Source: Marsupella aquatica (lineage: Eukaryota; Plantae; Marchantiophyta). From it: 64,000 nt of DNA. The DNA is taken from positions 386,917 to 450,916 of the forward strand of contig OZ316892.1 of NCBI GenBank assembly GCA_973895155.1, in the 5' to 3' direction. A program made the position numbers and the translations under genes. Positions 4,987 through 30,386 of the stretch are shown here, in pieces; positions within the stretch are counted from its first letter, which is position 1; each line of letters starts with the position of its first letter. The notes under the pieces were generated by a model. That model saw only the letters and a list, made by a program, of their open reading frames with translations, did not search any database and had not been told where the DNA came from.

Positions 4987-5700
4987 CACTAGTAGAAAAC
5001 AATGTAATTTATGACCGAAACAATGACTATTAATCAGGTCTTTTTAACAAAACAATGACGCAATTGTTCTCGTCTTTCCAGGCGCGTCACAACGGATATT
5101 TTGGTCACGGTCCTTTTGGACAAATGACGCTAAAAACATGTGGTCATTTCATACTATCCTAAATGACCGTTTTTATGATATGGTCATAAATGCTGAACGG
5201 TCCAAAATGACGACACAAATCACCATCGACGGTCAAATGCCGTTCACCGTCGATGGTCCCCGTACCCAATCACACAATGACATGTGGCAATCAAAAACAA
5301 ATAACATTGGTCATTTTGGACTTGTCTAAAATGACGTACATTATATAACAAATCAAATAGTGACACGTGGTTCAAAGAGGATTCACCATTTGGCAATATA
5401 TTTGTGTCATTTTGGACGTGTCCAAAATGACTACGGTATAAACAAGTCATATTGAGACACGTGGTTCAATTGGGAGGAGACACGTAAAGATACACATTAG
5501 TCATTAATGACATGTCTTGAATGACATAAAGTGAGTCATAGTGAACTTGTTTATGATGACCATGAGAACGGTCATTGTATATGTCATTCTTTGAATCATT
5601 TAGTCTATGTCTTTAATGACCAGAGTTGAGTCATATTGGTCACAAAGATAGTTGTGGATAATGACCATTACATCAGTCATTCTAGCCAGTCATTCAGGTG
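4987..5700. repeat. CACTA terminal inverted repeat (4987-~5000) and subterminal region with dense direct/inverted AATGAC-GTCAT motifs
   Basis: Begins CACTA exactly where homology to the LTR relic stops; many ATGAC/GTCAT copies in both orientations, as expected for TnpA-binding subterminal repeats. Confidence 0.8.
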
Positions 5701-6044
5701 AAGTATTCAATGATTTGGAGAAATTCAAATTTAAGTGATCATGATAGATAAAACTTCATGTCAATCAAAACTCATACATTACAAAGCCATTCAATAGATT
5801 TGCTGAATGAAAACTTAAAGAAACATTCGATATATATCACAAATCCAATTGACATTCATACAAGATATTCATAAGTCTCACGGTAACTATTGAACTCAAT
5901 GCAAATTTATGAAACAAAATTACATTGACATCAATAATATTAGATTGTCAATTGTTACAACCTGACATACCAATCACTGCATGTTTATAGAAAAACAGAG
6001 TTGTCATTCTATCATGTCTATTGTTTCTTGATAGAGTGCTATTT

Positions 6045-9000
6045 CTATGGCTTCTTAAGCAATGTAGAGTTCCATAGGGCATTCATCCCTTTCACATCAG
6101 ATAATTTAGACTGGTTCTCCCCTGCATTGGCAAATGGCAATGCCACATCTACAAACACTTCAATCACACGCACTCGCAAGAAAGGGCTTTCAAAATCTGC
6201 ACAATGAAACTTATCTTCTCCTAGCAGCCCTGTCACCTCACCTTCTGCCACTATCATGGAATTGTCCACAACGCACTTCATCTTCACCAAATCTCCTCTT
6301 GCAAACTGTGAACAACACATTTTGTTAAAAATGCAATAAACAGAAATTGAAAGATAGAAGAACACTCAAATCAAACACACATTTACCTTTGCAATGGGGT
6401 TAGGAGACTACATTGGTTTCTTCTGTGCAGGTGATGCATTTGCTGAGGATGCTTTCTTCCTTTTCTTCTTTCCCTTTCTAGTTGATGGAGTGTCATCCTG
6501 CTCACTTGGAACAGGAGTTTCTTTTGGCAACTCAGATGATTCTGGGGTTACATCTGGTGTCAACTGAGTCGACTTATCCTCTGGCAACTGAAAGGCATCT
6601 GAAATGGCTTCTTTGGGCAACTTAGATGGCAAAAGGTTCACTTCCAATAATTCAGTTTGCTTCAGAGTACTGTTAGCTGTGTCAGTTGGTCTTCCTTGTG
6701 ACACAGGAGGCTCCCCTAAAGATGCTGTCATAAAACACACACAAAAGAAATGCATAAACAAACATGTATACACCAGCAACATATAATCACACTAAAAACA
6801 TGCAAGAACATTATAAACATGCAATGACATATACACATCACAAGAATTACATTGAATGGACAGTGTATACATGATAGAGAATTTTACCTTCATTATCGCC
6901 TGAAAAAGTAAGAGATCGCTTTCTACTACCTTGTTTGGTAGCTGTAGTCAACTTACTGTGACTAGGCACAACTGTTGGAACTTGTGCATTACTGGTTTGA
7001 TGTGCCATCCACGTAGTCATCATGTTTGTCAACTCCCTCACAGTGCCTTTCAACTCAGCGACATCCAATTTCACAGCCCCAATGGAAGTGATCTCTTCTT
7101 TTGAATGTGGGGTCTGTAAATGAACCACAAACCAACACAACATTCTCACTGTCAAACTTACAAACGACACAACACTCTGTCAAATGGAGAATGATGTACA
7201 AATCAAATTGGTATGACAATACTCACAGCTGATCCATGTCTGTATCCTTGCCCCAGTAAGCTAGCACTTTTACCCTCCCCACTTGCCAATGATGGGCTCA
7301 CCTTTGCTCCCACAAAACTACCAGTCTGACCTTCTGCACTTGCCAATGATGGGCTCATTGTCACCTTTGGCAATCAACCCTAACTACCATGGTTTTCTTT
7401 CAGGTCAGATATACCTGAGCTTGATCCTCTCTTCTGCTTCTGTTCAAACACACAATGAATGAGAATCACAGAGTCTGTTTTCATGAAGATTCACAAACAA
7501 GACAGAATTGATAGTGAAAATGATAGACAATTGACCATTCTCTTTGCTGTTGCAGCATGCCCTCCTCTTCCAAAGTGAGAGGTATCTTGCACTCGTGCTC
7601 TTTTATCAGTCATCTGTTTACTCAAAGATATCAATGTTGGACTGGTAAAATGAGATACCAAAGCTGCCCATTTCTTTGGATCAACACCAGATGGCCCAGG
7701 TTTGGTTGGATCCTCATTGCAAACTTTCTTCCAGTAAACATGCATTTTATGGCGCTCTCTCTTCAATATGCCACGACAATGTCTCTGGAATTTGGTCTTA
7801 ATAAATTCCCCACCCACATACTTCCACTCAGCTGCCATGTTATTCCACACTGTGGTTGTATGAACTTGTGGATGATCAGTCCATTTTGGCTTTGATACAT
7901 CAAAGACTCTGAGTACTTTGCCACGAAGTTCCTCCAACCAGTATTGTTTGTTGCCATCAGAATCATCAATATCATTGTCATAAATCTGCATTTCACAAAC
8001 AATGTCAATTTATAACTTTGGAATTTATGCAGAGTCCAGGTTTTATACACACAACAACAGAGAGGATCAGATTTGATCACCCTATTCATTAAAAGTGTAT
8101 TTTATTTTGTTCACTTTTAGTCCTCTAAATGTTCACTTTTTGGTCTCTAAATGTACACTTTTTAAACCCAAAAGGTACACTATGGTATAATACTCTACAC
8201 CTAAATGATCAATTGTAAACTTGAGGTGACAAAAATGATCTTGACTAGAAGAAGTCTCATCCTAGTTCATTTACAAAGGATGAACATGGTGGTACATCTG
8301 ATGGCCATCAACTTTGTTTCTTGCCTAATTGTACACTTTTTGAAGGCCAAATGTACACTTTGTGTTGCCCAAATGTTCATAAATTGAATAATAATTCACT
8401 TTTAATGAATAGATTGATTTTGTCTAAATCTACATTCAAAAAAAGTACAATACTCACTTTAATGTGTTTGGGCAAATCTCCGTGATCCCTTCGTTGTTTG
8501 GCAGTATTATCAAACTGCTTCTTAGCATGCCTTCGTTCCCTGCGCATCTCAGAGGCCCCGCCTGCAATGCACACACATGCATTCAATCAAAAAATATGTA
8601 CATGATTGAAAAGTTGAGCAAATGCTCTTGCATATGCATGACGAGCAGATTGTGTATTACCTGAAGATCCTCTGGAATGTAGTACATCAGATTGACCTGA
8701 TCTGCCTTCAGATGCTGATGGAACCACTAAACAAACACACAACACCAAAGCACTTCAATTAATTTCATTTCCAAGTAGAATATCAACTTCCAAACACACC
8801 TGAAAAGTAGAACAGTACAATCCACTCACTTTCATATAAGAGTCCAGTGTCTGGGTCTTTCCAACATCTCACCAGCCCACCTCCACCAGGCCCAGTCTTC
8901 TTAGGACCACGATTTTGTTTCTGTACCTACATCATGGAAAAATGTAAGCATATCAACATATAATTTGAAAAAGGGACAAGGATCCCTTCCTATTAGGATG

Positions 9001-9570
9001 ATGAAGTTCAAGCATTACCTGTTGTTCACTCTCTGGTTCTGACCCTCCAATGTCAGAGTCCTCAGTGTCATACTCAGAAGGAGAACCATAGCCATCATCA
9101 CCACACTCTGCCATGTTCACCTTGGTAACTTCTGATAGTCTAGAGCTCCTCCTCTTTGGCAATGTTTCAGTTGAAGTACCTTTCACCAAAGTAGGCTTTC
9201 CTCTCTCTCGTTGTACATGTGTGGTTGGGCCTCTAAGGAACAAAGCAATCATCAACATACACCAATGCAGATCAAACATACATGCAAAATGAATCTACAA
9301 CACCGTAACACTAGTACTTATGTACAAGATCCCTACTAGTATGAGACCAATCTGGAATATGAAAACAGAACATGAACCTGACAACTTCATCTACTGAATC
9401 AAATTTGCAACAGACATATTAACACACACATCAGCATGCAGCCTGGCCCCAGTCCTAGATCATGCATAATTTTGACATTATGCTCTATGTTCTGCTTTCG
9501 GGCCTCCTCATAAGGATTCACAGAATGTGACAACCCCTGCAATCTTCCTTTCACAGGCTGCATTCACCAA
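6045..9570 (-). CDS. multi-exon CACTA TnpA-like protein (Transposase_24/Ptta-like middle domain, Tnp1/Transposase_23-like C-terminal domain); exon limits approximate, integrity uncertain
   Basis: Exon 7537-7987 has KWAALVSHFTSP...KRARVQDTSHFGRGG; the last exon has IVAEGEV...LRVRVIEVFVDVALPF...KLSDVKGMNALW; numerous GT-AG bounded short exons lie between. Confidence 0.7.
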
Positions 9571-9653: not shown

Positions 9654-12600
9654 CTATTCACTACTTAGGCTTGCCCTTTCTTGCAGATCCCTCTGCATCT
9701 CTACCTCGTTTGGGACCAGTACTTGGTCTTGGATTTGCTCTGGCCTACAGGCCTTAGCCAATTTGATGTGTAATTTGGCATTGTTTTCCATTGTAGCATG
9801 GAAATCAACGTCTGTGTAATCACCTAACACCCTTGTGGACCTGGATTCTTTGTGGAGGATTGTTCTCCATGCTATCCCCTTCTCATTGGGGTGGAAGAAA
9901 ACCTGCTCCACTTGCTTTGGGAAAACGTAATCCATTTTCTTGGACACACCCAGTTCTCTATGGAAATTCACCTGCCAAAGACCAGACTCATAATACCTCA
10001 TACTGGCAGAGGATTTAGGAGTCCATGATGGATCTGCCCATTTCCCTTTGAAAAGAATCACCTCTTTCCTCAAGCTGCCGTAATTCAGTACTAAGATATC
10101 TGTCAAGGCCCCTACATACTGTACAGATTCTTCTCTAGTTGCGCCAGACCTGTCCACTCGCTTCTCAGTGAATGTCGAAGCCATCCCAGAATCAAAAGTG
10201 CTGAATGCACCAGAATCACAATCACTCAAACACCCCAAGGATGGAATAGTCCTCCAGTGATGCCCATAGGCTCTGCATGCCCTATACAGTCGTGCCTTCA
10301 AACTAGGTGGTGTGGAGTATGCAGATAGTAATGACCGCTCAGACTCTGTCTCAAAATTATGGGTATTGACTAATGTTTGAAACCATTCCCTAAAAGGTGG
10401 CAGTTCTTGGCAGTCAAGGGGATATTCCACTGGTTTTCTTTGATTGGCAGGCTTCCTCATCCATTCCTTCCGGAAATCCACTCTTTGTTTGGTAACAGTC
10501 TCATTGGTAGCATCATATATCCTACATGGCAACAACAACACTCAAGACATTAGTGCACGATCCACCATGAATATACAAACACAATGGGGCAGCATAATTA
10601 TGATGCATATGGTACAGGGTTTACATACCTATACCATGGAGCCACTGTCTCTTCATTCTCCAATATATAATGATGCATGGCCATCATTTCAGACCAATTC
10701 AAAGTTATCTCCTTTGCAGCCCCTTCCAAGACAATGCCTGCAACGCCAGCATCCTCCTCCAACTCCCAGGTTCGTTTTCCCTCTCCCTTAGCATCAATCA
10801 TGTATTCAGAAAGGAATCCCAAAGACTCATCTAATACATAGCCTTCAGCCATAGAAGCCTCTGGACGTGCCTTGTTTCGTACATAACCCTTCAAAACCTT
10901 CAGGTTCCTCTCTATTGGGTACATCCATCTGCCTGTAACTGGGCCACACAAGTCTAATTCCTCCACTAGGTGAATCATTAAATGGGTCAGAGAGTGAATG
11001 CAACATCCATCATCAAATTCTCATACATTGAAGGGTCCCACACCTTCGTACAGATCTGGCGATAGATATTGCTCATCCCAGCTATGGCCAAGCGAACCCC
11101 TTCATCAAGTAATCCCATTGTTGCCAGAGGGAGAATCTGTTGCATGAGTTGGTGGAAATCATGTGATTTCAACCCAGAGAGTTTCTTGGATTTTGTAACA
11201 CACTTTGCCAAAGAACTTGAAAAACCAGTGGGCCCTTTCAAGGTCAATAACACCTCCAAGAACCTTGTTCTTTCCTTCTTGCTCAGGCAATATGGGGCTG
11301 GGGGCATCAACAATTTGTCATCCTTACGTTTGGAAGCTGGATTGGGTACAAGCCATAGGTGTTGGCGCACCTGTAAGAGCTTCAGGTCTTCTCGCACAGA
11401 AGGAGTGTCCTTGGTCCCAATGATAGTGTGCACAATGTTGTGTGCAAGATTCTTCTCACAGTGCATGGGATCTAGACAATGGTTAATGAGTAGTTCCTGC
11501 AGTGGACACACAATTCAGAAATTAGGGCATTGAATACAACAATTACAAAATCTGGGCTACAGGAAGTAAACACATTTCAAAGTCATATGAAGAGATTGCA
11601 GAAATTCATTGTAGTAGTATGGAGTCTTACGTTCCAATAGGGTAACTTGTACAGACCAGTAGCCCTCTTCACTCCATGCACCTTTATGGGGCAGCTCTCA
11701 TCCTCAACCTTGGTTCCTCCCTTCTTCAAATATTATGTTGTCTCGTCTCCCCACTTCTTTCTATCAGAGCTTGACATTCTACACGGTGCAGGTCGGCTCT
11801 CAATTGCACCATCAAAGTATTGTGCATTGTCTGGTCTACGAAAAAGATGCCTTGCTGCTAACCATCGACGATGGCCATTGTACTCTAATTTCTGCAAGTG
11901 CTTAGAACCACGTGCCACACATTTTGGCCCACAGATGACACATCCTTTGTATCCAGCGTGTTGTTGTCCAGATATTAAACCATATGCAGGGTAATCATTG
12001 ATTGTCCACAATAGCAAAGCCCTTAGGTTGAAGTGTTGAGACAATCCTAGGCGTGGCAATTTGTCAAAGCAGGGCACTCCTTTTGTCCACAACAGCTCCA
12101 GCTCCTCATAGAATGGGCCCAATATTATGTCCAGTTGTTCCTCTGTTACTGAATCAGGTCCTGGAATCAGCATAGCTAGCATGACAAAGAACTTCTTGGT
12201 GGTAAGCCAAGGAGGTAAATTGTAATTCAACAACAAGATTGGCCAGGTAGACCAAGGTGTGGAATTATTCCCAAAGGGATTCACCCCATCAAGTGCCAAC
12301 CCAAATCGCACATTCCTTGGTTCAACTGCAAATTTTTTATCAATATTTGTATCCACATGCTTCCAAGCCTTGGAATCTGCTGCGTGCCGAACCATGTTGT
12401 CTGTGCTTCTATTCTCATGATGCCAAGTCATGAGTTTAGATGTACCAGTAGTGGCATACAATCTCTTCAACCTGGGAATTATAGGGAAATACCGCACCAC
12501 CTTCCTTGCCTGTAATGAATTCCCCACTGTCTTCATCTTGGGCTGCTGACACACTGAACAGTTTTCTAACTTGGCATTCTCACCCCTAAAGAGCATGCAA

Positions 12601-13490
12601 CCTTTCTCACAGATAGGGATTCTCTCATAATCCAAGCCAAGCTTTCTCAATAGCTGCTTTGCAGCATATAAGTTCTTGGGCAGATTATGCTCTGCAGGCA
12701 TACCATGCTCCCCCATCAAAGACAACAATGCATTCACTCCTTTGTTTGAGAATCCATGGCCATGACAGATGTTCAGCAGAAGCAACATGAATGACACAAC
12801 ATCTATTTTGCTGCCTGGGAACAAAGGTTGCATTGTTGCATCTAAAGATAACTGTGCAGGATCAGTCTCCACAGGAGTTTTGGAGGTTTCAAGGGGGTTT
12901 ACAGGATGGGCACCTCCTTCACTCTCATCATCCCCAAGTACAAAATCCAAGTCAAAATGGTCCTGATCATCTAGCTCATGCTTAGGGGATTCTTCACTGG
13001 TTCTCAGCAACGTTTCTTCCAGTAGAGCCCTGATATGTTCTTCGACATCTACAGTTGGATACTCTGGAACATCCACAGTTGGATACTCTGGAACATCTAC
13101 AAATAAATGTTCTTCAACATCTATAGTTGGCTGTTGTGCACAGGTTGCCTGCTGAAGGTTTGCTACCCCCAATGCCTCAGGGCCATGTTGTGACATGTAG
13201 TCAGCACCCCACTCTTCATCAGAAGAGTCCTGTCCCTCTCCCACCCACACTCGACATGCAGGGTACCGACCATGTTTAATAAGGTGCAGTCTAGCAGTAT
13301 TCTGATTAGTCCTATAATTCCCTTTGCAGTTCACACAAGGGCAGTACATCTTATGGTCCCCACTCTTGTGGTAGGCCTTCTGTTCTCGAACCCACAAAGC
13401 ATCATCACGATGTTGTACTCTAGCTGGATGGAGGAGCGACAACTTTGGAGTTCTACCCACACCTAACATATTATGTGGCAATTGTGCCAT
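9654..13490 (-). pseudogene. CACTA TnpD/Tnp2 transposase (transposase-associated Zn domain, Transposase_21, DUF4218, DUF4216), disrupted
   Basis: YCPCVNC..LHLIKHG; YFPIIPRLKRLY; RNVRFGLALDGVNPF; YNLPPW; WTINDYPAYG; LDPMHCEKN; GLKSHDFHQLMQQILP; WMYPIER. Introns at 11497-11630 and 10522-10628. In-frame TAA at 11733-11735 and a deletion/frameshift near 10987 (the usual LE..FPPSFFD segment is missing). Confidence 0.93.
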
Positions 13491-14090
13491 GCTAGCTTGA
13501 TTGAAATTGTATTCAAACTATGATTTTCAAACTGAATCAGAGTGACATGCATACAAAATTGGGCCTACCGTCACAGTTGTACAACCGATGCCAACCACAG
13601 TCCAATTGCTCAAACCCACAGAGCCCAGTTTCTCAAATCCACTATAGTAGGGCACCTTCTCCTTCTTGCATACAAATAGAGCATCACATATAGTGTCATC
13701 AGAATGATACTATGAAAGTAAATCTCTCTGCCTTCATCATTTCCAGTATTTGTTTACCTATTAGGAATGTGAGCAGACAGGTTTGGAATAAGTAACGTTT
13801 GTGACACCAGTGACAAATTTACAAGTGAAGTTTAGACATCAATATGGAGGAAAGTCACACTCAAAGCACATGCTTGAAAATCGGAATCCTACCCTGGAAA
13901 AGATAATAAAGTTGATTTCTCAAAATTAATTGCCTCAATCCACAATGCACTGTCGTAGAGTGTGTATACATGAGGAGTTCATCAAACTGCATATAAATAG
14001 TCCACATGTTTTAGCACTCTGAAAATTGTTTAAGTCCACGTGAAACCATCAAAAAGCTCTATCTCAAGTTTGTGTTCCATCCAGCCTCAA

Positions 14091-14750
14091 TCAAATCCAA
14101 GATATGTGGCTCCTAGCAGGAGTGCCTAGTGTAGGGTCAATGTCATGGTCAGGACAGTAAAACATCCCCTTCTTGGGCTGCCCATGCGCTGAGTGATCCC
14201 AAATTGTTCGATCATGGGCAAATCCCCTCTGCTGGATAAACAGCAGGCAGTCCTTGTGCCATGCCTTAGGACACCTCATGCACTGAACCAAAAAGCCATT
14301 AGCCCCATCATTGGGCCCCTGTCCACAAGTAAGACAAATATGGAGTCCACATGATGTTGTGCCAGGAACCAAACACTGCCGACAGTAAAACCGGGCACAG
14401 AGAGAGTCTGGACATTTTCTTACCTCTTCACCAATTTTTCCAGACACATGGCACTTAAAGCAAGAATGTTTCTCATTCTTGCAATCAACACAAAGCCATT
14501 CTCCAACATGGCCATCATCGAGGGATATAGTTGGGCATAGCCATTGCTGACCCAAAGGACAGGAAACATTCTTATGGAAATGTCGGTGGCAAGGCCCATC
14601 ACAAACAATGAGATCCCCTCCCTCATCACAAATCGCACATACATGTGGACTATTCTGGTTAATCTCAATGTTTGAATATAAGGACAATTGAGGTGCTTGA
14701 GAGGATTCACCTCTACAACGATTCATGGCCTTCTGCTTATTGCGAGCCAT
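14091..14750 (-). CDS. stand-alone EDM2/NSD-type PHD-finger cluster protein (219 aa from ATG 14750), carried inside the CACTA element
   Basis: CAICDEGGDLIVCDGPCHRHFH..C; CVDCKNEKHSCFKC; CGLHICLTC; QCMRCPKAWHKDCL; FYCPDHDIDPTLGTPARSHISW. The ATG is in ACCATGG context and the frame is uninterrupted. Confidence 0.85.
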   Translation of the reverse strand: MARNKQKAMNRCRGESSQAPQLSLYSNIEINQNSPHVCAICDEGGDLIVCDGPCHRHFHKNVSCPLGQQWLCPTISLDDGHVGEWLCVDCKNEKHSCFKCHVSGKIGEEVRKCPDSLCARFYCRQCLVPGTTSCGLHICLTCGQGPNDGANGFLVQCMRCPKAWHKDCLLFIQQRGFAHDRTIWDHSAHGQPKKGMFYCPDHDIDPTLGTPARSHISWI

Positions 14751-16334
14751 GGTCTTGCACACTCAGACCCTACATCAGATTGTGAAACAAGAAGGAATAA
14801 CAGTGTGCAGCATGACACAAAAGAATGAGGGTGCAACATAAAACATGACATGTAACCACAAGGGTGCAGCATAAACCAATGCTTTATAGATGGCAAAGCA
14901 TTTAGGACTGAGCAGCGCAAATAACCTTGGCCTATGATTGGAAGCAATCACAAATATTGCAACCTGTATGCCTTCGCTTGCTGTACAGCAGTGCTCACTC
15001 ACCCTGCCTTTTTAAAATCTGTAAGGGCAACACAGAACAAATAGCAATTGAGTTTCAGCAAAGCATTCATTTGGCTCTCAAGTTTTAAAATGGACAGAGA
15101 AAACACAACAATGTGCACAACAAAGCACAGAGAGCAACAAAACTCTAGCAAACTGGGACTCAGGCAAGAGATACGAATTTTAGCAGCAAAATCAAATCAA
15201 GATTCGGACCTGTGAGTTCAACATGCAGTGCTCACTCACCCTGCCCTTTTTTTAAATCTGTAAAAATCAAGTTTTATTGTGTGCCTTCTACATCTTAAGC
15301 TGCTGCACACATTTGTTACAGAACCATAAGTTGATTTACTCTCAACAAGCTACTGGTCCACCCACTTTTTCAAAAGCTGCACCGTACTCTATCTTCGTGC
15401 ACAAATGACTATACCGGGCTGCTGTCAGAGACCCTTACGAAGAATTTAAAATTGACCAAGCTGATTTTAGTTTAGTTTCGTCCAGTTTGCAGACCAAAGG
15501 AAATCATGTGGCTGTATTCATGGAGTTGTATTCATTGCTGTGTATGGATGTTGTGTGAACATCAGACAGTTAGCTGTAAATTACCATAGTTGAAGAGCAA
15601 GGCTTGTACAAAAGCCACTAAGGAATTCTCTAAGGTGGCACAGCAGTTGGCAAACCACACACGAAACTCTGAAACTTTTTGGCGACAAAATTCTACAGAG
15701 TCGCTGTTGGAATCAAGTGAGGATTCACCATACATGCCTGCACTTCTCTTCAGTAAAAAAAAGAGAAAAGAAAAGGGCTATGATACAGAGGGATGTCAAA
15801 AGAAGAGTAAGGAAACCAATTCATTGAGGAACATAGACAGACTAAGGAAAACATCATACAATGGAAAACTAAGGACTACATTGTAATAATAAGAGATCAA
15901 GCTCACCTTGCACCACAAAGATTGTCAGATGACAACAAGACAACAAACTGAACTGAACATAGCAGACAAATCCAACAAGTAGCAATCAGAAATCAACAGC
16001 AGACAGACAGAGGACAACTCGGTCAGAACTCGGGCACTTGATTTAGTTGTGGTAAATAGCCGTTCAGGTTCTGGACAAGCAAGAGCAATACGTGAGCAGA
16101 CTCCAGAAAAATCATCTCTTGAGATTGAGGAGAAAGGCATTTCCCAGCCAGCTTACCTATGTCTTGAAAAATGTATCGGACATCGTGGACGCTGGGCCTC
16201 AGCTGCTGGCCGCAAGGGAAGATTTTGCCAAAACAAACAATAAAGCTTGAAGATAGTTAAATTTCTTAGGTCTTTCTAAATGGGGACTGAATTAGCAATT
16301 AGAACCAGTAAACCCTGATCTTGGGCAGGCAGAG

Positions 16335-16490
16335 TGTGATGCCTAGACAGGAATCACTCGGCCGGTTAAGTGGGTAAAGCAGGAAGGCACCCTAGGAACA
16401 CCTTAGTATAGGGACAAAACAAGGAAAATATAAACAATTAGGGGCAACCATGGAACCCGGGCAGAGGCCGGAGGTAAGGCTGAGGGTGAA
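16335..16490 (+). repeat. LTR A, first 156 bp only (remainder lost by deletion)
   Basis: Matches the LTR start, then a 13-bp filler and a jump into pol. Confidence 0.9.
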
Positions 16491-16503
16491 GGATTTCAAG
16501 GAA

Positions 16504-16814
16504 ATCAAGGATTTTGCCAAGCTAGCTTTACCATTAACCAATATGCTCAAGGCAGGAGCAGACTTCGAACCCACACCCGAACGAGTCACAGCGGTGGTAG
16601 AATTAAAGCAGATGTTAGTAGAGGCCCCAGTCATGATAGCACCGGACTGGAACAAAGATTTTCATGTTTTTGTAGATGTCTCGGGCTTCTGTATTGGCTC
16701 AGTACTAAGTCAGTTGGATGAGAAAGGAAGGGACCATCCCATATACTTCGCAAGCCGTCAGCTTGCCGATGCCGAACGGAACTACTCTACCACGGAAAGA
16801 GAAGCATTAGGAGT
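16504..16814 (+). pseudogene. pol: pol fragment (RT connection/RNase H N-terminus)
   Basis: IKDFAKLALPLT...FHVFVDVSGFCIGSVLSQ...NYSTTEREALGV, matching 34645-34955. Confidence 0.92.
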
Positions 16815-17310
16815 TGTGATGCCTAGACAGGAATCACTCGGCCGGTTAAGTGGGTAAAGCAGGAAGGCACCCTAGGAACACCTTAGTATAGTGACAAAAC
16901 AAGGAAAATATAAACAATTAGGGGCAACCATGGAACCCGGGCAGAGGCCGGAGGTAAGGCTGAGGGTGAAAACCCGATTAGGGTTAGGGCGCGTTAAGCG
17001 TCGGCGGCTAGGAAGGATCAACGGGAAGAAGGACCGGCAGAGGAGAGGGGTAAGGAGCGCTTGCAGGAGATGGTGGCTCATTTGCGAGCACGAACTAGGC
17101 AGACGACTACGGGAGGCCAACTACTGTCAGCTGCTTAGGCAAGCACTCGGGGAGAGAGTAGATACCGACGATCGACCTAAGGAGGGTATGAGCAACATCA
17201 ATCAAGCGGCACATTTCTGGGGATGCCTGTTCGAACGGGCAATTGAGTACATCAAGACTTACGAGGACGAGGAATCAGAAAGGGCAGCTCGAGAACGGCA
17301 GGAGCTCGCT
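16815..17310 (+). repeat. LTR B, 5' 496 bp, interrupted by insertion of LTR C
   Basis: TGTGATG start; ends with TCGCT, which recurs after LTR C. Confidence 0.92.
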
Positions 17311-17425
17311 TGTGATGCCTAGACAGGAATCACTCGGCCGGTTAAGTGGGTAAAGCAGGAAGGCACCCTAGGAACACCTTAGTATAGGGACAAAACAAGG
17401 AAAATATAAACAATTAGGGGCAACC

Positions 17426-20400
17426 ATGGAACCCGGGCAGAGGCCGGAGGTAAGGCTGAGGGTGAAAACCCGATTAGGGTTAGGGCGCGTTAAGCGTCGG
17501 CGGCTAGGAAGGATCAACGGGAAGAAGGACCGGCAGAGGGGAGGGGTAAGGAGCGCTTGCAGGAGATGGTGGCTCATTTGCGAGCACAAACTAGGCAGAC
17601 GACTACGGGAGGCCAACTACTGTCAGCTGCTTAGGCAAGCACTCGGGGAGAGAGTAGATACCGACGATCGACCTAAGGAGGGTATGAGCAACGTCAATCA
17701 AGCGGCACATTTCTGGGGATGCCTGTTCGAACGGGCAACTGAGTACATCAAGACTTACGAGGACGAGGAGTCAGAAAGGGCAGCTCGAGAACGGCAGGAG
17801 CTCGCTCGATTGTGGGAGCTGCAGAAGACGGCTTTCTTAGGAGGCGAACTCATCAAGGACGAGTTCCTGTGGACGCCTACTTCCAATCAACTCGACGATC
17901 TTCTGTTTTGCAAAGACAGCGTCGTCGGCATCCGAGAGGCCATCAAGAACTGCAACGACATACACTGGGAATTAAAGGGTAGCACGGAAAGGTGGACCCA
18001 GGCAACGGTGCTAGGAGAAACCTCCACAGCAGCAGAGATGAAGAGGAAGGGGGCCGTCAACGATGAAGCCACCCCGGCAAAAAGAACGAGGTCGGCGGCA
18101 CCAAAGAGGCCAGCCGAGCAGCAGAGCAGGAGGCAGGGAGAAGCCGAAGAGGAGGAGGTCGATCCCATCAAGGCCATTCCAACCAGGGATGACACCTGGA
18201 AGGGCTGGGCGGCAACCCTACCGGTGGAGGTGCAACTACATTTTGCACGGGAGGAGGATGCATGCTTTACGGCCATGCAGACCAAGAAGTACCAAGGCTT
18301 CATGGCCGGATCCGGCTTGGAGGCCTTTGTAAGATTACCATGGCTGAAGCCGGAGGTACCGGAGTCAGACCTATTAGAATTCGTGGGGTCATGGGAACCC
18401 GAGACCAATTGCACGAGGATATATGGGAAGGATTTCTATCTTACTCCCAAGGTAATTGCCGAAGTGTTTGGCTTGCCGATAGGCAATAAGACCAAAGTTG
18501 ATACCAGGAAGACCCTGCCTGACAAGGAGTTCCGGTCATTCCCCGGGCCATCAACGAAGAATGGCTTCTTCCGGAACACCTGCACCAACCCGCACATAGG
18601 AGAGATGATCGACTTCTTGCGGGTGACCATGCATTGTAACTTGCCGAGGGCAGAGATCGGCAAGGCACAGGTCTATCTGGCAGAAAGGCCAGACCCAAGC
18701 CGGGACTACAACGGGTACCTCCTCAACCAATTGAAGAAGATCTTAAAGGAGGAGCAGCAGGTAATCGGCATGGGGAGCGTGTCACGGCTTGGCTATCACA
18801 TGCCGCTGTTGTGCCGGTATGCCAGAGGTCAGACTTTTGCCCCGGTACTTCCCCTGCAGGTAAGGGCACCCGAGGAAGCTCCAACGCCGAGGCCGTTGGC
18901 TGAGAAGCCTCAACCACCTGTTAGTCCTACGATCGAGCAGGTGTTTAGGCCCAGGAAGGAAGACTTGCCGATGCAGCAACCAGGCATGCAGAGTCTGCTG
19001 AAACTACTGGAGAAAGAAAAGAAATCGGCATCGGCAACAACAACGGCAACGGCAACAATGCAGGACACTACTACAGAGGTAGGCCTACACCGGCTCACAA
19101 GAGAAAACCCCTTTGCTGGAGACAAGGAGAGAATCAGGCCAGAATCCAAGCCAGGTGTTCGAATGTACGTGGGAACCTCAAGCTCCGAATCTGAGGCAGA
19201 ATTGCCTGAAGCTCCTACCGACGAAGAGGAGAGGGAGAAGCCGGACGTCCAAGAGGTAGAGGAGGCAGTGGAGGACTGCAGCCATGATAATTCCGGCTAT
19301 GGGTCGGACCATCACGTTCCAGGAGTAAGGACCTGTGGCTGGTTTGTCCCCACACTTCCAAGGGTAGTGCGAGGGGACCCCAACCAGCAGAGTAGCCCTG
19401 AGTCTCCCCCACCAGATGTTGCTCCCCCGAGCTTCGACGGCATAAAACAGACGGTGCAGGAATTTCAGGAGCGAATCAAGCAGGAGGAGGAGGCCGCCCT
19501 GGCTAAGGAAAAGGATTTACCAGGAGGAGATTGGCCGGAGGACATCAGGCGGCTAGCCAAAAAAGGAAGCAAACCTCTAGCCACGATTGAAGAGATCCGC
19601 AGGACGGCTTGGGAGCAGAGGCCGCGATGGGCGATGCCGATCACTTCTACTTACTCCACCTACGCTAAGAATAGAGCCATGGAGTATGGTGAGATGTGTG
19701 GGGAACTTGCGCTCGGCATCTTTGGAGAGGAGTTGGAAGTAGGACCCTTTTTCCATAGGGAGCAGTTGGAGAAGCACCAATTAGAAGAAGCGGTGGCTTT
19801 AGAGAGAAGCAAGAAGGACGAGGTCATTCGGCGGCTTAGGAGGATGGAAGCCGAGATTGAAGATCTAAGGGCGGCCAAGAAAGCCCAAGATGAACTGCGG
19901 ATTAAACGACATAAGCTGAACATCATGCAGGGGCAGTTGGACACCGCGCAGGCTGATAATCAGAATATCAAGGATAAACTGACTCAGACGCAGGAAGAGT
20001 TGGCCGACACGATCAAAGAGAGGGAGAAGTGGAAGCAAGAGCTGAAGAATACAGAGGAGGCCCACATAACAGCCAACAGCCGGGCCATGGCGGAGACCCA
20101 AAGAAAGGAATGGGCGTTGAAAGGGGAGCTCGAGAAAATCCGCGGAGCCCTTGAGCAGAAGGAGGCCGAGTTAGGGAAATCCTATCAAGGGATTATGGCG
20201 CTGCAGCAGGAGCTTGCGTCCCTGACGGCCAGCTTCAAGGCCGACCTAAGGGAGAAGGACGAGATGCTCGAACAGACTTACGCCAAGATGAACCAGATGG
20301 AGTCTGTCATCATTGCAGAGCTCGACAAGGAGCTAAGAGCAACCCAGGAGGAGAGGGCTACCTTGAAGAAGGAATTGGAGGAAGCCCACAGGGAGCAGGA

Positions 20401-21049
20401 GGAGGCCAAAAACGAGCTGGAGGGGGCACGTAAGGACCTGGATGAAACCCAAGAGGAGTTGGAGGAAATCACGAGGAAGATGGAGAACCTACAGCGGCCG
20501 GCCGACAACCAAACAGAGCGGCTGAAGAAACAAGCCGCAGTATTTAAATGCTTAGCTGCAGCAGGTCCATCTCCCGTTGGGACAAACCAGTTACCAGGGG
20601 TGGTAATTGCCGAAGGACAAGCCGCGCCAACTGCACCAGTGCCGGAAGTAAGTGGGAAGGGGAAGGGACCAGCTGCCGAGCCACCAACGAAGAAGAAGCG
20701 GAAACCTTCAGGGTCAAGGAGTAATACGACTTCACAGGCCGTGGTGATCAAGGAGGTAGACCCAGCACCGACCCCAGACAGGGTCACGGCTAAGGATCCA
20801 ACTACCCTAGGGGAAGGGGAGGCCGAAGCCGAGGGAGTGGCTGAAGCCGAAGCCGTGGGAGTGGCTGAGGCCGAAGCCGTGGGTATTGCCGAGGCCGGTG
20901 TCGAGGCTGAACCCGAAGGTGGACCCAGTCAGGCCGATGGAGAGTTGACTCAGTCAAGGGCAGGTAATCTGTCAGAGAATGAACCTACGGCAGTGGCTGA
21001 GGAGGAAGTGTTGGGGGCGTCCATTGAGGATCCACCACCAGTGTCGTGA
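17426..21049 (+). CDS. LTR-encoded 1207-aa accessory protein (basic N-terminus, PMD/Transposase_32-like motif, acidic linker, long coiled coil, acidic tail), intact
   Basis: Open for 3.6 kb from an ACCATGG start at LTR position 116; LLEFVGSWEPETN..YGKDFYLTPKVIAEVFGLPIG; heptad-rich E/K/Q/L region ~19760-20545. Confidence 0.88.
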   Translation: MEPGQRPEVRLRVKTRLGLGRVKRRRLGRINGKKDRQRGGVRSACRRWWLICEHKLGRRLREANYCQLLRQALGERVDTDDRPKEGMSNVNQAAHFWGCLFERATEYIKTYEDEESERAARERQELARLWELQKTAFLGGELIKDEFLWTPTSNQLDDLLFCKDSVVGIREAIKNCNDIHWELKGSTERWTQATVLGETSTAAEMKRKGAVNDEATPAKRTRSAAPKRPAEQQSRRQGEAEEEEVDPIKAIPTRDDTWKGWAATLPVEVQLHFAREEDACFTAMQTKKYQGFMAGSGLEAFVRLPWLKPEVPESDLLEFVGSWEPETNCTRIYGKDFYLTPKVIAEVFGLPIGNKTKVDTRKTLPDKEFRSFPGPSTKNGFFRNTCTNPHIGEMIDFLRVTMHCNLPRAEIGKAQVYLAERPDPSRDYNGYLLNQLKKILKEEQQVIGMGSVSRLGYHMPLLCRYARGQTFAPVLPLQVRAPEEAPTPRPLAEKPQPPVSPTIEQVFRPRKEDLPMQQPGMQSLLKLLEKEKKSASATTTATATMQDTTTEVGLHRLTRENPFAGDKERIRPESKPGVRMYVGTSSSESEAELPEAPTDEEEREKPDVQEVEEAVEDCSHDNSGYGSDHHVPGVRTCGWFVPTLPRVVRGDPNQQSSPESPPPDVAPPSFDGIKQTVQEFQERIKQEEEAALAKEKDLPGGDWPEDIRRLAKKGSKPLATIEEIRRTAWEQRPRWAMPITSTYSTYAKNRAMEYGEMCGELALGIFGEELEVGPFFHREQLEKHQLEEAVALERSKKDEVIRRLRRMEAEIEDLRAAKKAQDELRIKRHKLNIMQGQLDTAQADNQNIKDKLTQTQEELADTIKEREKWKQELKNTEEAHITANSRAMAETQRKEWALKGELEKIRGALEQKEAELGKSYQGIMALQQELASLTASFKADLREKDEMLEQTYAKMNQMESVIIAELDKELRATQEERATLKKELEEAHREQEEAKNELEGARKDLDETQEELEEITRKMENLQRPADNQTERLKKQAAVFKCLAAAGPSPVGTNQLPGVVIAEGQAAPTAPVPEVSGKGKGPAAEPPTKKKRKPSGSRSNTTSQAVVIKEVDPAPTPDRVTAKDPTTLGEGEAEAEGVAEAEAVGVAEAEAVGIAEAGVEAEPEGGPSQADGELTQSRAGNLSENEPTAVAEEEVLGASIEDPPPVS

Positions 21050-21764
21050 CGGTGCAAGGGCGCCGTTCCTTTTAGGGAGGGCGGACGTGGAGGGAGGAGG
21101 CGTGAGTGGGCAGGGCGGGCGCGGATCTCCATGTTTAGGATTAGGATCAGAACCAGGAGCGGCCCTGACACTTAGCTTAGTGGGATTGCGGTCCCACTGG
21201 TAGGAGCAACACTTGTGCTCCTGCCTTGCTGTACATAGGTAGATTCGGGCAAGTAGATTACTGTTAAGTAGATTAGGCTTACGATGCAAAGAATGGCGGA
21301 TCCACTACCAGGATAAGTACCTGGGCAGCGGGGAGCTCAGGGCCTCTTCTTTAGCAAGTTTTTAGTTTGCACCAGCCGGGCTGGGATCAAGTAGTACGAG
21401 AAGCTCTCGGTTAGTCATACAGTGACCCTTGTGTATATTCATGTTTCCTCATGCCTAAGAGCTGAATAGAGTTGGCCTCACGGCTTAGTTCGTAGAACTT
21501 GTGTATGAGATGTACTGTTTGTATGGCAAGTGCATGGTATGACTCAGTCAGAATGAGTCATTTTGCTATTTGTGTGTCGCATTAACTTGTGTGAAGAGTG
21601 CCCACATCAACAGAAGGAAGGAAAGTAAGCAGGGGAGTGAGAGTTGGATGTGTCGAGCTGAGAGAGGTCTTAGCGGCTTAACCAAGCCTATTGGGGATCA
21701 TTCCGGCGGCGGAATCCAAACATACCTAACAAAACGGAGGGGAAGACAGGGGAAGATAGGGGAA

Positions 21765-21779
21765 GGCCTATATTAGGCC
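21765..21779 (+). promoter_or_regulatory. candidate LTR TATA box (TATATTA) within the palindrome GGCCTA-TAT-TAGGCC; present in every LTR 3' part
   Basis: TATA-like motif ~200 bp from the LTR end; the position is inferred, not mapped. Confidence 0.4.
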
Positions 21780-21867
21780 GGCTACGTATCTCATGACCTG
21801 ATGAAGGATCTGTCCAGTATATGTGTGTAAAATGTTAATAGTAGTAGTAGAAGGTTAGCAGCGTCCC

Positions 21868-24800
21868 ATGCCGCTAAGCCGCGGAAACGGCCTCGCCAAG
21901 CACGAAACCTGCGAGAATCGGCTTGAGCTGGGGGGTTTCTTGGGTTTAGGGAGCCATGGGACGCACCACATCGCTCGATTGTGGGAGCTGCAGAAGACGG
22001 CTTTCTTAGGAGGCGAACTCATCAAGGACGAGTTCCTGTGGACGCCTACTTCCAATCAACTCGACGATCTTCTGTTTTTCAAAGACAGCGTCGTCGGCAT
22101 CCGAGAGGCCATCAAGAACTGCAACGACATACACTGGGAATTAAAGGGTAGCACAGAAAGGTGGACCCAGGCAACGGTGCTAGGAGAAACCTCCATGGCA
22201 GCAAAGATGAAGAGGAAGGGAGCCGTCAACGATGAAGCCACCCCGGCAAAAAGAACGAGGTCGGCGACACCAAAGAGGCCAGCCGAGCAGCAGAGCAGGA
22301 GGCAGGGAGAAGCCCAAGAGGAGGAGGTCGATCCTATCAAGGCCATTCCAACCAGGGATGACACCTGGAAGGGCTGGGCGGCAACCCTACCGGTGGAGGT
22401 GCAACTACATTTTGCACGGGAGGAGGATGCATGCTTTACGGCCATGCAGACCAAGAAGTACCAAGGCTTCATGGCCGGATCCGGCTTGGAGGCCTTTGTA
22501 AGATTACCATGGCTGAAGCTGGAGGTACCGGAGTCAGACCTATTAGAATTCGTGGGGTCATGGGAACCCGAGACCAATTGCACGAGGATATATGGGAAGG
22601 ATTTCTATCTTACTCCCAAGGTAATTGTCGAAGTGTTTGGCTTGCCGATAGGCAATAAGACCAAAGTTGATACCAGGAAGACCCTGCCTGACAAGGAGTT
22701 CCGGTCATTCCCCGGGCCATCAACGAAGAATGGCTTCTTCCAGAACACCTGCACCAATCCGCACATAGGAGAGATGATCGACTTCTTGTGGGTGACCATG
22801 CATTGTAACTTGCCGAGGGCAGAGATCGGCAAGGCACAGGTCTATCTGGCAGAAAGGCCAGACCCAAGCCGGGACTACAACGGGTACCTCCTCAACCAAT
22901 TGAAGAAGATCTTAAAGGAGGAGCAGCAGGTAATCGGCATGGGGAGCGTGTCGCGGCTTGGCTATCACATGCCGCTGTTGTGCCGGTATGCCAGAGGTCA
23001 GACTTTTGCCCCGGTACTTCCCCTGCAGGTAAGGGCACCCGAGGAAGCTCCAACGCCGAGGCCGTTGGCTGAGAAGCCTCAACCACCTGTTAGTCCTACG
23101 ATCGAGCAGGTGTTTAGGCCCAGGAAGGAAGACTTGCCGATGCAGCAACCAGGCATGCAGAGTCTGCTGAAACTACTGGAGAAAGAAAAGAAATCGGCAT
23201 CGGCAACAACAACGGCAACGGCAACAATGCAGGACACTACTACAGAGGTAGGCCTACACCGGCTCACAAGAGAAAACCCCTTTGCTGGAGACAAGGAGAG
23301 AATCAGGCCAGAATCCAAGCCAGGTGTTCGAATGTACGTGGGAACCTCAAGCTCCGAATCTGAGGCAGAATTGCCTGAAGCTCCTACCGACGAAGAGGAG
23401 AGGGAGAAGCCGGACGTCCAAGAGGTAGAGGAGGCAGTGGAGGACTGCAGCCATGATAATTCCGGCTATGGGTCGGACCATCACGTTCCAGGAGTAAGGA
23501 CCTGTGGCTGGTTTGTCCCCACACTTCCAAGGGTAGTGCGAGGGGACCCCAACCAGCAGAGTAGCCCTGAGTCTCCCCCACCAGATGTTGCTCCCCCGAG
23601 CTTCGACGGCATAAAACAGACGGTGCAGGAATTTCAGGAGCGAATCAAGCAGGAGGAGGAGGCCGCCCTGGCTAAGGAAAAGGATTTACCAGGAGGAGAT
23701 TGGCCGGAGGACATCAGGCGGCTAGCCAAAAAAGGAAGCAAACCTCTAGCCACGATTGAAGAGATCCGCAGGACGGCTTGGGAGCAGAGGCCGCGATGGG
23801 CGATGCCGATCACTTCTACTTACTCCACCTACGCTAAGAATAGAGCCATGGAGTATGGTGAGATGTGTGGGGAACTTGCGCTCGGCATCTTTGGAGAGGA
23901 GTTGGAAGTAGGACCCTTTTTCCATAGGGAGCAGTTGGAGAAGCACCAATTAGAAGAAGCGGTGGCTTTAGAGAGAAGCAAGAAGGACGAGGTCATTCGG
24001 CGGCTTAGGAGGATGGAAGCCGAGATTGAAGATCTAAGGGCGGCCAAGAAAGCCCAAGATGAACTGCGGATTAAACGACATAAGCTGAACATCATGCAGG
24101 GGCAGTTGGACACCGCGCAGGCTGATAATCAGAATATCAAGGATAAACTGACTCAGACGCAGGAAGAGTTGGCCGACACGATCAAAGAGAGGGAGAAGTG
24201 GAAGCAAGAGCTGAAGAATACAGAGGAGGCCCACATAACAGCCAACAGCCGGGCCATGGCGGAGACCCAAAGAAAGGAATGGGCGTTGAAAGGGGAGCTC
24301 GAGAAAATCCGCGGAGCCCTTGAGCAGAAGGAGGCCGAGTTAGGGAAATCCTATCAAGGGATTATGGCGCTGCAGCAGGAGCTTGCGTCCCTGACGGCCA
24401 GCTTCAAGGCCGACCTAAGGGAGAAGGACGAGATGCTCGAACAGACTTACGCCAAGATGAACCAGATGGAGTCTGTCATCATTGCAGAGCTCGACAAGGA
24501 GCTAAGAGCAACCCAGGAGGAGAGGGCTACCTTGAAGAAGGAATTGGAGGAAGCCCACAGGGAGCAGGAGGAGGCCAAAAACGAGCTGGAGGGGGCACGT
24601 AAGGACCTGGATGAAACCCAAGAGGAGTTGGAGGAAATCACGAGGAAGATGGAGAACCTACAGCGGCAGGCCGACAACCAAACAGAGCGGCTGAAGAAAC
24701 AAGCCGCAGTATTTAAATGCTTAGCTGCAGCAGGTCCATCTCCCGTTGGGACAAACCAGTTACCAGGGGTGGTAATTGCCGAAGGACAAGCCGCGCCAAC

Positions 24801-25218
24801 TGCACCAGTGCCGGAAGTAAGTGGGAAGGGGAAGGGACCAGCTGCCAAGCCACCAACGAAGAAGAAGCGGAAACCTTCAGGGTCAAGGAGTAATACGACT
24901 TCACAGGCCATGGTGATCAAGGAGGTAGACCCAGCACCGACCCCAGACAGGGTCACGGCTAAGGATCCAACTACCCTAGGGGAAGGGGAGGCCGAAGCCG
25001 AGGGAGTGGCTGAAGCCGAAGCCGTGGGAGTGGCTGAGGCCGAAGCCGTGGGTATTGCCGAGGCCGGTGTCGAGGCTGAAGCCGAAGGTGGACCCAGTCA
25101 GGCCGATGGAGAGTTGACTCGGTCAAGGGTAGGTAATCTGTCAGTAGGCGGGCCAACGGCAGTGGCTGAGGAGGAAGTGTTGGGGGCGTCCATTGAGGAT
25201 CCACCACCGGTGTCGTGA
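21868..25218 (+). CDS. junction-fusion version of the LTR protein (1116 aa; U5-derived ATG fused in frame to the truncated ORF)
   Basis: MPLSRG...THHI|ARLWELQ reads across the LTR-end/TCGCT junction; expression unknown. Confidence 0.55.
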   Translation: MPLSRGNGLAKHETCENRLELGGFLGLGSHGTHHIARLWELQKTAFLGGELIKDEFLWTPTSNQLDDLLFFKDSVVGIREAIKNCNDIHWELKGSTERWTQATVLGETSMAAKMKRKGAVNDEATPAKRTRSATPKRPAEQQSRRQGEAQEEEVDPIKAIPTRDDTWKGWAATLPVEVQLHFAREEDACFTAMQTKKYQGFMAGSGLEAFVRLPWLKLEVPESDLLEFVGSWEPETNCTRIYGKDFYLTPKVIVEVFGLPIGNKTKVDTRKTLPDKEFRSFPGPSTKNGFFQNTCTNPHIGEMIDFLWVTMHCNLPRAEIGKAQVYLAERPDPSRDYNGYLLNQLKKILKEEQQVIGMGSVSRLGYHMPLLCRYARGQTFAPVLPLQVRAPEEAPTPRPLAEKPQPPVSPTIEQVFRPRKEDLPMQQPGMQSLLKLLEKEKKSASATTTATATMQDTTTEVGLHRLTRENPFAGDKERIRPESKPGVRMYVGTSSSESEAELPEAPTDEEEREKPDVQEVEEAVEDCSHDNSGYGSDHHVPGVRTCGWFVPTLPRVVRGDPNQQSSPESPPPDVAPPSFDGIKQTVQEFQERIKQEEEAALAKEKDLPGGDWPEDIRRLAKKGSKPLATIEEIRRTAWEQRPRWAMPITSTYSTYAKNRAMEYGEMCGELALGIFGEELEVGPFFHREQLEKHQLEEAVALERSKKDEVIRRLRRMEAEIEDLRAAKKAQDELRIKRHKLNIMQGQLDTAQADNQNIKDKLTQTQEELADTIKEREKWKQELKNTEEAHITANSRAMAETQRKEWALKGELEKIRGALEQKEAELGKSYQGIMALQQELASLTASFKADLREKDEMLEQTYAKMNQMESVIIAELDKELRATQEERATLKKELEEAHREQEEAKNELEGARKDLDETQEELEEITRKMENLQRQADNQTERLKKQAAVFKCLAAAGPSPVGTNQLPGVVIAEGQAAPTAPVPEVSGKGKGPAAKPPTKKKRKPSGSRSNTTSQAMVIKEVDPAPTPDRVTAKDPTTLGEGEAEAEGVAEAEAVGVAEAEAVGIAEAGVEAEAEGGPSQADGELTRSRVGNLSVGGPTAVAEEEVLGASIEDPPPVS

Positions 25219-26139
25219 CGGTGCAAGGGCACCGTTCCTTTTAGGGAAGGCGGACGTGGAGGGAGGAGGCGTGAGTGGGCAGGGCGGGCGCGGATCTCCA
25301 CGTTTAGGATTAGGATCAGAACCAGGAGCGGCCCTGACACTTAGCTTAGTGGGATTGCGGTCCCACTGGTAGGAGCAACACTTGTGCTCCTGCCTTGCTG
25401 TACATAGGTAGATTCGGGCAAGTAGATTACTGTTAAGTAGATTAGGCTTACGATGCAAAGAATGGCTGATCCACTACCAGGATAAGTACCTGGGCAGCGG
25501 GGAGCTCAGGGCCTCTTCTTTAGCAAGTTTTTAGTTTGCACCAGCCGGGCTGGGATCAAGTAGTACGAGAAGCTCTCGGTTAGTCATACAGTGACCCTTG
25601 TGTATATTCATGTTTCCTCATGCCTAAGAGCTGAATAGAGTTGGCCTCACGGCTTAGTTCGTAGAACTTGTGTATGAGATGTACTGTTTGTATGGCAAGT
25701 GCATGGTATGACTCAGTCAGAATGAGTCATTTTGCTATTTGTGTGTCGCATTAACCTATGTGAAGAGTGCCCACATCAATAGAAGGAAGGAAAGTAAGCA
25801 GGGGAGTGAGAGTTGGATGTGTCGAGCTGAGAGAGGTCTTAGCGGCTTAACCAAGCCTATTGGGGATCATTCCGGCGGTGGAATCCAAACATACCTAACA
25901 AAACGGAGGGGAAGACAGGGGAAGACAGGGGAAGGCCTATATTAGGCCGGCTACGTATCTCATGACCTGATGAAGGATCTGTCCAGTATATGTGTGTAAA
26001 ATGTTAATAGTAGTAGTAGAAGGTTAGCAGCGTCCCATGCCGCTAAGCCGCGGAAATGGCCTCGCCAAGCACGAAACCTGCGAGAATCGGCTTGAGCTGG
26101 GGGGTTTCTTGGGTTTAGGGAGCCATGGGACGCACCACA
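21971..26139 (+). repeat. 5'-truncated LTR unit (LTR position 492 to end), 4169 bp, type-A ORF tail
   Basis: Starts TCGCTCGATTG, ends GCACCACA. Confidence 0.93.
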
Positions 26140-30317: not shown

Positions 30318-30321
30318 TTTT

Positions 30322-30339
30322 TGGCGCTAGATGGAGGGG
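30322..30339 (+). promoter_or_regulatory. primer-binding site, probably tRNA-Asn
   Basis: TGGCGCTAGATGGAGGGG 4 nt after the LTR end; from memory, one mismatch to the complement of the plant tRNA-Asn(GUU) 3' end (TGGCGCTAGAAGGAGGGG). Confidence 0.75.
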
Positions 30340-30386
30340 GCATTTCTTAAGCCGTGAGATATGAAGTTAGAACGGAAGCGTAGGTA

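Follow-up and report, generated by a model that had tools for sequence, protein, structure and literature searches.

A stand-alone EDM2-type PHD protein with a histone H3-like N-terminus encoded in a CACTA transposon

The window, i.e. the whole 64-kb stretch of Marsupella aquatica DNA analyzed here, contains an intronless open reading frame (ORF) for a stand-alone EDM2/NSD-type PHD cassette whose N-terminus, by sequence, resembles the tail of histone H3, and which lies inside a CACTA element upstream of the transposase gene TnpD (Table 1). The N-terminal motif is conserved in what sequence comparison identifies as an old and diversified protein family; both this family and the likeness to the H3 tail were overlooked by the earlier note on this DNA. 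The PHD gene is likely to be an old accessory gene of this CACTA lineage. That its product is an old transposon-encoded reader-plus-mimic, which would help the element to stay transcribed against silencing, is offered by analogy as a plausible reading that falls short of probable. Histone readers borne by TEs and accessory genes with which TEs counter silencing are already known kinds, but the combination of a lone EDM2-type cassette and an H3-like tail in a CACTA element appears to be new.

The PHD gene and its CACTA element

Table 1. Features in and around the CACTA element, in positions of the window
Feature	Position	Strand	Remarks
Left TIR candidate CACTAGTAGAAAA	4987..4999	+	TTG before; 3' with respect to the element's transcription
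Subterminal zone, ATGAC/GTCAT-rich	5001..6000	.	26 per kb vs 0–5 in nearly all other bins
TnpA-like spliced exons	5975..9294	-	ORF pieces; by position and resemblance only
TnpD transposase	9654..13490	-	Two GT-AG introns; Transposase_21, DUF4218
Candidate splice acceptor between PHD stop and TnpD	13894..13916	-	Sequence scan only
PHD-cluster ORF	14091..14750	-	Intronless, 219 aa: H3-like tail + linker + EDM2/NSD-type PHD cassette
PHD cassette	14094..14639	-	Residues 38–219; ends with EDM2-type YC..H.I...L.TP.R.H tail
H3-tail-like N-terminus ARNKQKAMNR	14718..14747	-	5/10 identical to H3 1–10
Candidate splice acceptor, 19 nt before PHD ORF ATG	14770..14790	-	Sequence reading
Two near-identical candidate non-coding micro-exons	15257–15240, 15018–15003	-	Each CAG...GGCAGG then GTGAGT
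Ty3/gypsy-type LTR retrotransposon nest	16335..58155	+	Inserted in the element's 5' region; flanks CAGAG / TAGAG, 4/5 letters alike
CACTA 5' region, probable continuation	58156..64000	-	60001–64000 ATGAC/GTCAT-rich, 15–20 per kb

The PHD ORF opens with an ATG at 14750 in the context ACCATGG, its stop codon ends at 14091, its protein ends in FYCPDHDIDPTLGTPARSHISWI, and exactly 600 bp separate its stop from the first TnpD ATG on the same strand. The intact, intronless ORF reported in the earlier note was thus confirmed in its coordinates, start, stop and gap. Three NSD-type Pfam models reached their cut-offs – PHDvar_NSD (31.1 bits, cut-off 27), PHD_NSD (30.3, cut-off 23.9) and PHD-1st_NSD (27.2, cut-off 27) – whereas the generic PHD model remained below its own (21.9, cut-off 24); together with the EDM2-type C-terminal tail, this bore out the assignment to the EDM2/NSD type rather than to generic PHD proteins. 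No DNMT1-RFD or any other non-PHD domain was found in the Pfam scan of the 219 aa, and an Rfam scan gave 0 matches. As only PHD families matched and the ORF has its own start and a conserved stop, the cassette is stand-alone and the other EDM2 domains are absent, as had been proposed.

A protein Atlas search with the PHD ORF retrieved NSD-type PHD clusters only, and in the PDB the sequence matched NSD3 (E 1.6e-10) and NSD2 (E 2e-7) over residues 39–171 only. The C-terminal tail, common to EDM2-family proteins, lies outside this match, and the PHD ORF in turn has neither the SET nor the PWWP domain. An AlphaFold2 model of residues 23–218 was of fair confidence (mean pLDDT 76, pTM 0.73, 34 sequences), and a fold comparison of the first AlphaFold2 model ranked NSD PHD tandems best. 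Since the PDB sequence search found no solved structure of an EDM2 cassette, the PHD ORF may show what such a cassette binds.

The placing of the PHD ORF inside a CACTA element, also claimed previously, was upheld by the domains of TnpD (Transposase_21, E 6e-65, and DUF4218, 1e-24, with Transpos_assoc and DUF4216 weaker and under their cut-offs), by the candidate CACTAGTAGAAAA end and by the motif-rich subterminal zones. Judged by the CACTA terminus pattern, CACTAGTAGAAAA is a candidate terminus; no right TIR partner occurs within the 64-kb window, whose end is subterminal-like. The ORF pieces between this terminus and TnpD are presumably TnpA, and none of the five scanned (5/5) gave a Pfam match at E <=0.01. 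The region from 58156 to the end of the window probably belongs to the same element, so that we infer a single CACTA element running from 4987 to beyond 64000 and interrupted upstream of the PHD gene by the LTR nest. Upstream of the PHD ORF, the candidate micro-exons are 16–18 nt long and have strong splice signals. Splicing to the candidate acceptor that precedes TnpD might let transcripts skip the PHD ORF; more speculatively, the element could alternate between a short message for the PHD protein and transcripts that read through into TnpD. No TnpD-intron joint was seen among the 15 joints listed of 64 in the sequencing runs, a result that does not bear on expression.

TnpD of the window copy has three real breaks, a premature TAA at 11735–11733 and frameshifts near 10989 and 9743. 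A different letter stands at 11735 in four of four sequencing runs and an extra base at 9743 in three of the four, so that this stop and the 9743 frameshift look private to the window copy. The earlier note had pointed to a PHD ORF that remains open beside a broken transposase. Both halves of that observation hold, but as evidence of function it is void and was discarded: with three breaks over 3.86 kb, an ORF of 0.66 kb has a probability of ~0.6 of escaping disruption by chance.

The LTR nest is a 42-kb head-to-tail array of one Ty3/gypsy-type family with units 96–99.7% alike. Besides gag and pol it contains a repeated extra ORF of <=1225 aa, mostly coiled-coil-like, which starts within the LTR and matched no Pfam family above cut-off; several units contain this extra ORF alone and resemble non-autonomous tandem copies. 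A truncated LTR piece at 4544–4984, ~81% like the nest LTRs, ends exactly at the CACTA terminus, so that the CACTA element probably landed in an older element related to this retrotransposon. At the other end, 60001–64000 consists of ~580-bp tandem units, 79–86% alike, each built around a palindromic core (...GGCAAATCACTCCAAAG...CTTGGGAGTGATTTCCCC...) and motifs as in the left subterminal region; if part of the CACTA element, this would be an unusually long subterminal array.

A family of stand-alone proteins related to EDM2

The first search yielded three close relatives (81, 71 and 52% identity), and later searches brought the family to 34 clusters besides the window ORF (27 of the 33 matches of one search plus members from another). 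All are short proteins that stand alone; they come from assemblies of Logan, JGI and ENA, and almost all are unnamed or annotated as “hypothetical”. The 21 near-full members shared a median pairwise identity of 43% (32–91%), as opposed to 29% with 20 host EDM2-like cassettes; for the window ORF, identity to these cassettes was 28–34%. They formed a single clade with an SH-aLRT of 100 in a quick tree (20 rows) and 100/100 in a careful tree (12 rows), the fragments P0125 and P0184–P0187 being assigned to the family by alignment only. The Cys/His ligand columns of the cassette were retained in 19–21 of the 21 near-full members, and in 20 of them the stop follows just after the final His. Many other members are frameshifted or truncated, including L001, a metagenome locus seen as DNA, which is intronless and continues for ~65 bases after the stop.

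Relatives with flanking sequence were rare in the collections scanned: 0 of 74 pattern matches in metagenome contigs were confirmed, a later scan giving one locus, L001; viral contigs gave 0 and then 0 of 17 confirmed, and prokaryote genomes 0 of 76. CACTA linkage is known for the window's family only. The stand-alone proteins could be an ordinary host gene family, of which this CACTA family alone captured one copy (Pack-CACTA) and spread it, a view favored by the lack of any distant member tied to a transposase, on contigs of only 0.6–13.4 kb, and by the PHD-only host gene of Marchantia (P0025). Yet an informative name or a long contig accompanied none of the 27 family matches, whereas host paralogs have them; many members are decayed, as repeat copies are; the two members seen as DNA are both intronless; and several diverged versions occur within one sequencing run (X1), with the variants among the element copies themselves constrained. 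A host family captured once is on this evidence distinctly unlikely.

A search for longer relatives gave five matches, four of them EDM2-like plant proteins, and the best named long matches were Marchantia Mp1g03210, a Calypogeia protein, Selaginella EDM2 and a Riccia protein. In the careful tree the family fell within the EDM2-family (land-plant-type) branch with 98/95 support, as sister (81/90) to six cassette-terminal liverwort-type paralogs, four of which are named as liverwort proteins. Searches and phylogeny place EDM2-family rather than generic PHD proteins nearest among the long relatives, as the likeness to EDM2 seen in the earlier note would require. As the careful tree was built under LG+G4 without a mixture model, the long stem of the family may mislead it, and the first tree, made by a quick method, did not fix the family's position; AU tests rejected neither a joining to full EDM2 (p 0.23) nor one to the NSD-like outgroup (p 0.21), so that descent from EDM2 proper is one possibility among several.

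The PHD ORF shares with EDM2 and EDM2-like proteins of the ASI1-AIPP1-EDM2 complex the same atypical PHD repeat, ligand columns and C-terminal tail, but unlike EDM2 it is transposon-borne, has an H3-like tail, lacks introns, the DNMT1-RFD region and the methyltransferase-like ELP domain, and has a long stem branch and a shortened PHD2 with an H-to-C swap (C in place of the host H123). In PHD1, D51 is retained in 21/21 members and an aromatic residue stands at 85; these are presumably the contact sites for H3 R2 and A1, respectively. Just before PHD1, Q32 occurs in 21/21 members where hosts commonly have an acidic residue, and H36 is new, so that tail reading may differ from that of EDM2 or be lost. 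EDM2 itself is described as binding H3K9me2 chromatin, promoting full-length transcripts and suppressing proximal polyadenylation (PMC7529245, PMC9910501, PMC3632883).

Copies of the element and selection

Part of the window was present in 8 of the 10 listed sequencing runs (six studies), none of them recorded as RNA. Four runs aligned to 4700–16500 each covered 30 of 30 bins (run X7, with 8 of 30, was left out), and contigs of three coded organisms covered the PHD ORF. In run X1, a contig of depth 701 spans 13650–14853 with 18 differences and no gap, next to depths of 750–890 for TnpD/TnpA contigs, where contig depth is a rough guide rather than a copy number and one run may be the window's own source. 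Diverged X1 sister contigs, in which similarity is lost near the two ends of the PHD ORF, at its start and stop codons, add more than one diverged version within this single run. The X1 contig through the ORF and these sister contigs place it in sister CACTA copies, as the reading in the earlier note requires. Its presence in most copies of this CACTA family is an extrapolation from these data, given that depth is not copy number and that no contig among those listed bridges the PHD ORF and TnpD.

Of the 58 variant rows, 40 were listed, 39 of them in the ORF, and two beside an alignment gap were dropped. The remaining 37 comprised 18 synonymous and 19 non-synonymous variants against an expected synonymous fraction of 0.26, giving omega ~0.37 (p 0.002), a value that the 18 further rows could shift. 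This synonymous excess speaks against neutral evolution of the ORF, which would have refuted the reading in the earlier note, and supports, if indirectly, purifying selection among the element copies. Six differences private to the window copy (two synonymous, four non-synonymous) are compatible with neutrality since its insertion, and one low-depth sister contig lacks one zinc ligand. A functionless passenger fragment would suit this 2:4 ratio as well as the openness of the window copy, which chance explains; but it would account neither for the synonymous excess among copies nor for ligands, start motif and stop retained across 32–91% identity, and the passenger reading, by sequence already largely refuted, is very improbable.

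The CpG observed/expected ratio was 0.25 for the PHD ORF, 0.22 for TnpD and 0.62 for the LTR pol, and a CpG depletion equal to that of TnpD suggests long residence of the PHD ORF in the element. A recent capture of EDM2 exons was considered and rejected, given the ~30% identity, the long stem and this shared CpG loss.

The H3-like N-terminus and its possible role

The window protein begins M-A-R-N-K-Q-K-A, and in a sister subfamily the third residue after Met is T; P0002 is identical to H3 1–10 at seven places. The N-terminus is predicted to be disordered and was unplaced in both AlphaFold2 monomer models (pLDDT <50). Tail statistics covered 33 family N-termini, with three near-duplicates and four N-terminally cut members excluded. 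R-x-K-x-x-A occurred in 21 of the 33, whereas shuffles predicted 0.84; among 153 other proteins, one had it within the first 40 residues. Likeness to H3 reached p <0.05 in 18 of the 33. The strict mimic rule iM-Z-R-X-K (small Z; H3 1–18 peptide), for which PMC8166343 gives 48 qualifying proteins out of 20,996 in human, was fitted by 12 of the 33 members including the window ORF (two via a second in-frame Met) and by 3 of 153 others. These counts reflect conservation and not independent origins, since the members share one ancestor.

The H3-like motif was spotted by eye before its statistical test, the RxK anchors being chosen without reference to H3. At the eight unanchored positions, H3 1–10 fitted the family profile better than expected from linker composition (p 0.0025) or permutations (p 0.016), and only 2 of 428 other xRxK 10-mers scored as high as H3. 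A or S stands at position 7 in 24 of the 26 anchored motifs. The consensus is unlike H3 at position 3 (P in 12/26), position 6 (K in 15/26) and position 10 (no S10); 7 of the 33 members have no RxK anchor, and 14 of the 26 anchored motifs lie 1–7 residues behind the nearest Met and would therefore lack the free A1 amine. Motifs 6–7 residues in fitted the K9 context better, with A-R-K/R in four of the seven listed, all from one subclade. A complex prediction of tail (1–30) and cassette (20–218) without alignments gave a score of 0.02 and a mark of 0.34, and a PDB search with the 20-residue tail gave 0 matches.

The basic N-terminus could be a plain nuclear localization signal with no mimicry involved, in which case the cassette would, in truncated form, compete or cooperate with EDM2-family complexes of the host. 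The tail is indeed K/R-rich and disordered, mostly has P at position 3 and K at position 6, and in the 14 motifs mentioned is away from the free N-terminus; import, however, would not obviously call for A/S/T at position 1, A/S at position 7 or a fixed spacing, the fit to H3 at the unanchored positions goes beyond linker composition, and 12 members follow the strict N-terminal rule, to which few human proteins conform. A reader without mimicry is accordingly considered rather unlikely.

For the preferred reader-plus-mimic reading, a mechanism can be outlined from EDM2 and PHD biology and from H3 mimics. The cassette would bind H3 tails in the element's heterochromatin, and removal of Met before Ala would leave a free A1-R2-x-K4 end that may be methylated or bound like H3. 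This end could be a bait for host readers and writers, or a latch on the protein's own PHD1. The net effect would be relief of silencing or read-through to TnpD/TnpA, like that of EDM2 on genes with heterochromatic introns. The more specific idea of a chromatin adaptor on silenced nucleosomes, of long standing in a plant transposon lineage, in which an EDM2-type reader carries a fake H3 tail as a decoy for H3K4/H3K9 enzymes and readers, is an analogy advanced tentatively and with some doubt. Unlike VANC, the PHD ORF protein has no DNA-binding domain that would provide element specificity.

The cassette might instead be a targeting factor that tethers the TnpA/TnpD complex to chromatin of a given state and in this way directs new insertions to heterochromatin, where they are tolerated. 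Retrotransposon chromodomains are a model for such chromatin-directed insertion, and the window copy adjoins the LTR fragment at 4544–4984 and later received the LTR nest, although one insertion site carries no information on bias. Of the chromatin domains known as fusions with TEs, the most frequent are PHD and chromo readers (10.1101/2021.11.30.470311), and PHD is found in Rehavkus transposases (PMC6446971). The PHD ORF, however, has its own conserved stop and is unfused to the transposase, and targeting leaves the H3-like tail unexplained; this role seems unlikely. The same distinction applies to known TE-borne histone readers as a group, such as those of chromoviruses, Rehavkus and cnidarian PYGO-type PHD fusions, which are joined to a transposase, integrase or RT (10.1101/2021.11.30.470311, PMC6446971), whereas here the EDM2-type cassette is encoded by a gene of its own.

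Returning to the reader-plus-mimic reading, a histone mimic of the virus type is not known to have been described for any transposon. To our knowledge, few plant transposon anti-silencing proteins are known, the best studied being VANC, which acts via DNA motifs. VANC differs from the PHD ORF in belonging to another superfamily, in recognizing DNA motifs and in causing hypomethylation, and no sequence relation was seen; what the PHD ORF has in common with it is that a TE ORF separate from the others is maintained by selection, and this in most copies, as judged roughly from depth. Like the PHD ORF, VANC and KIU of VANDAL MULEs are separate accessory ORFs of a plant DNA transposon, and in KIU a domain captured from the host is maintained by selection (PMC13317346, PMC10398659). 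H3TMs and the influenza NS1 ARSK mimic share with the PHD ORF the fit to iM-Z-R-X-K and a disordered tail (PMC8166343), but the putative mimic here is transposon-encoded and belongs to a polypeptide that also contains a PHD cassette.

Full-text searches, assessed by titles and the starts of abstracts and with Repbase and subscription journals outside their range, turned up no description of a CACTA element with either an EDM2-type PHD gene or an H3 mimic. “PHD” has 0 occurrences in a 2026 review of TE gene capture (PMC13317346), and CACTA/EnSpm has 0 in the main text of a survey of 823 TE–chromatin fusions, whose supplementary table may bear on this (10.1101/2021.11.30.470311). If true, a heterochromatin-type reader and H3 mimic in a CACTA element would represent an anti-silencing route distinct from that of VANC, and transposons would join viruses and host proteins as sources of histone mimics. 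The 219-aa protein, a soluble candidate with clear point mutants, makes the idea directly testable.

Similar starts occur among host proteins. Many long non-seed-plant or unnamed EDM2-like proteins (P0017–P0021, P0026, P0037, P0071, P0084) begin M-A-R, some of them M-A-R-T, whereas MASSDDE is the usual start of EDM2 proteins of the seed-plant type. The host EDM2-like family may thus have possessed a free A1-R2 end from early on. P0025 (Marchantia Mp4g03050), a host protein of 280 aa with no domain beyond the PHD cassette, has PRPKMKASK close to its N-terminus; it is the only R-x-K-x-x-A carrier among the 153 non-family proteins, groups with the liverwort paralogs outside the stand-alone clade, and offers a tractable model for testing the motif. 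Given the MAR starts of long host proteins and the P0025 motif, the family motif may be partly inherited. Among the seed-plant sequences, the short EDM2 paralogs P0098, P0099 and P0123, which are without the methyltransferase-like part, start M-A-R-x-K and are possibly a parallel case.
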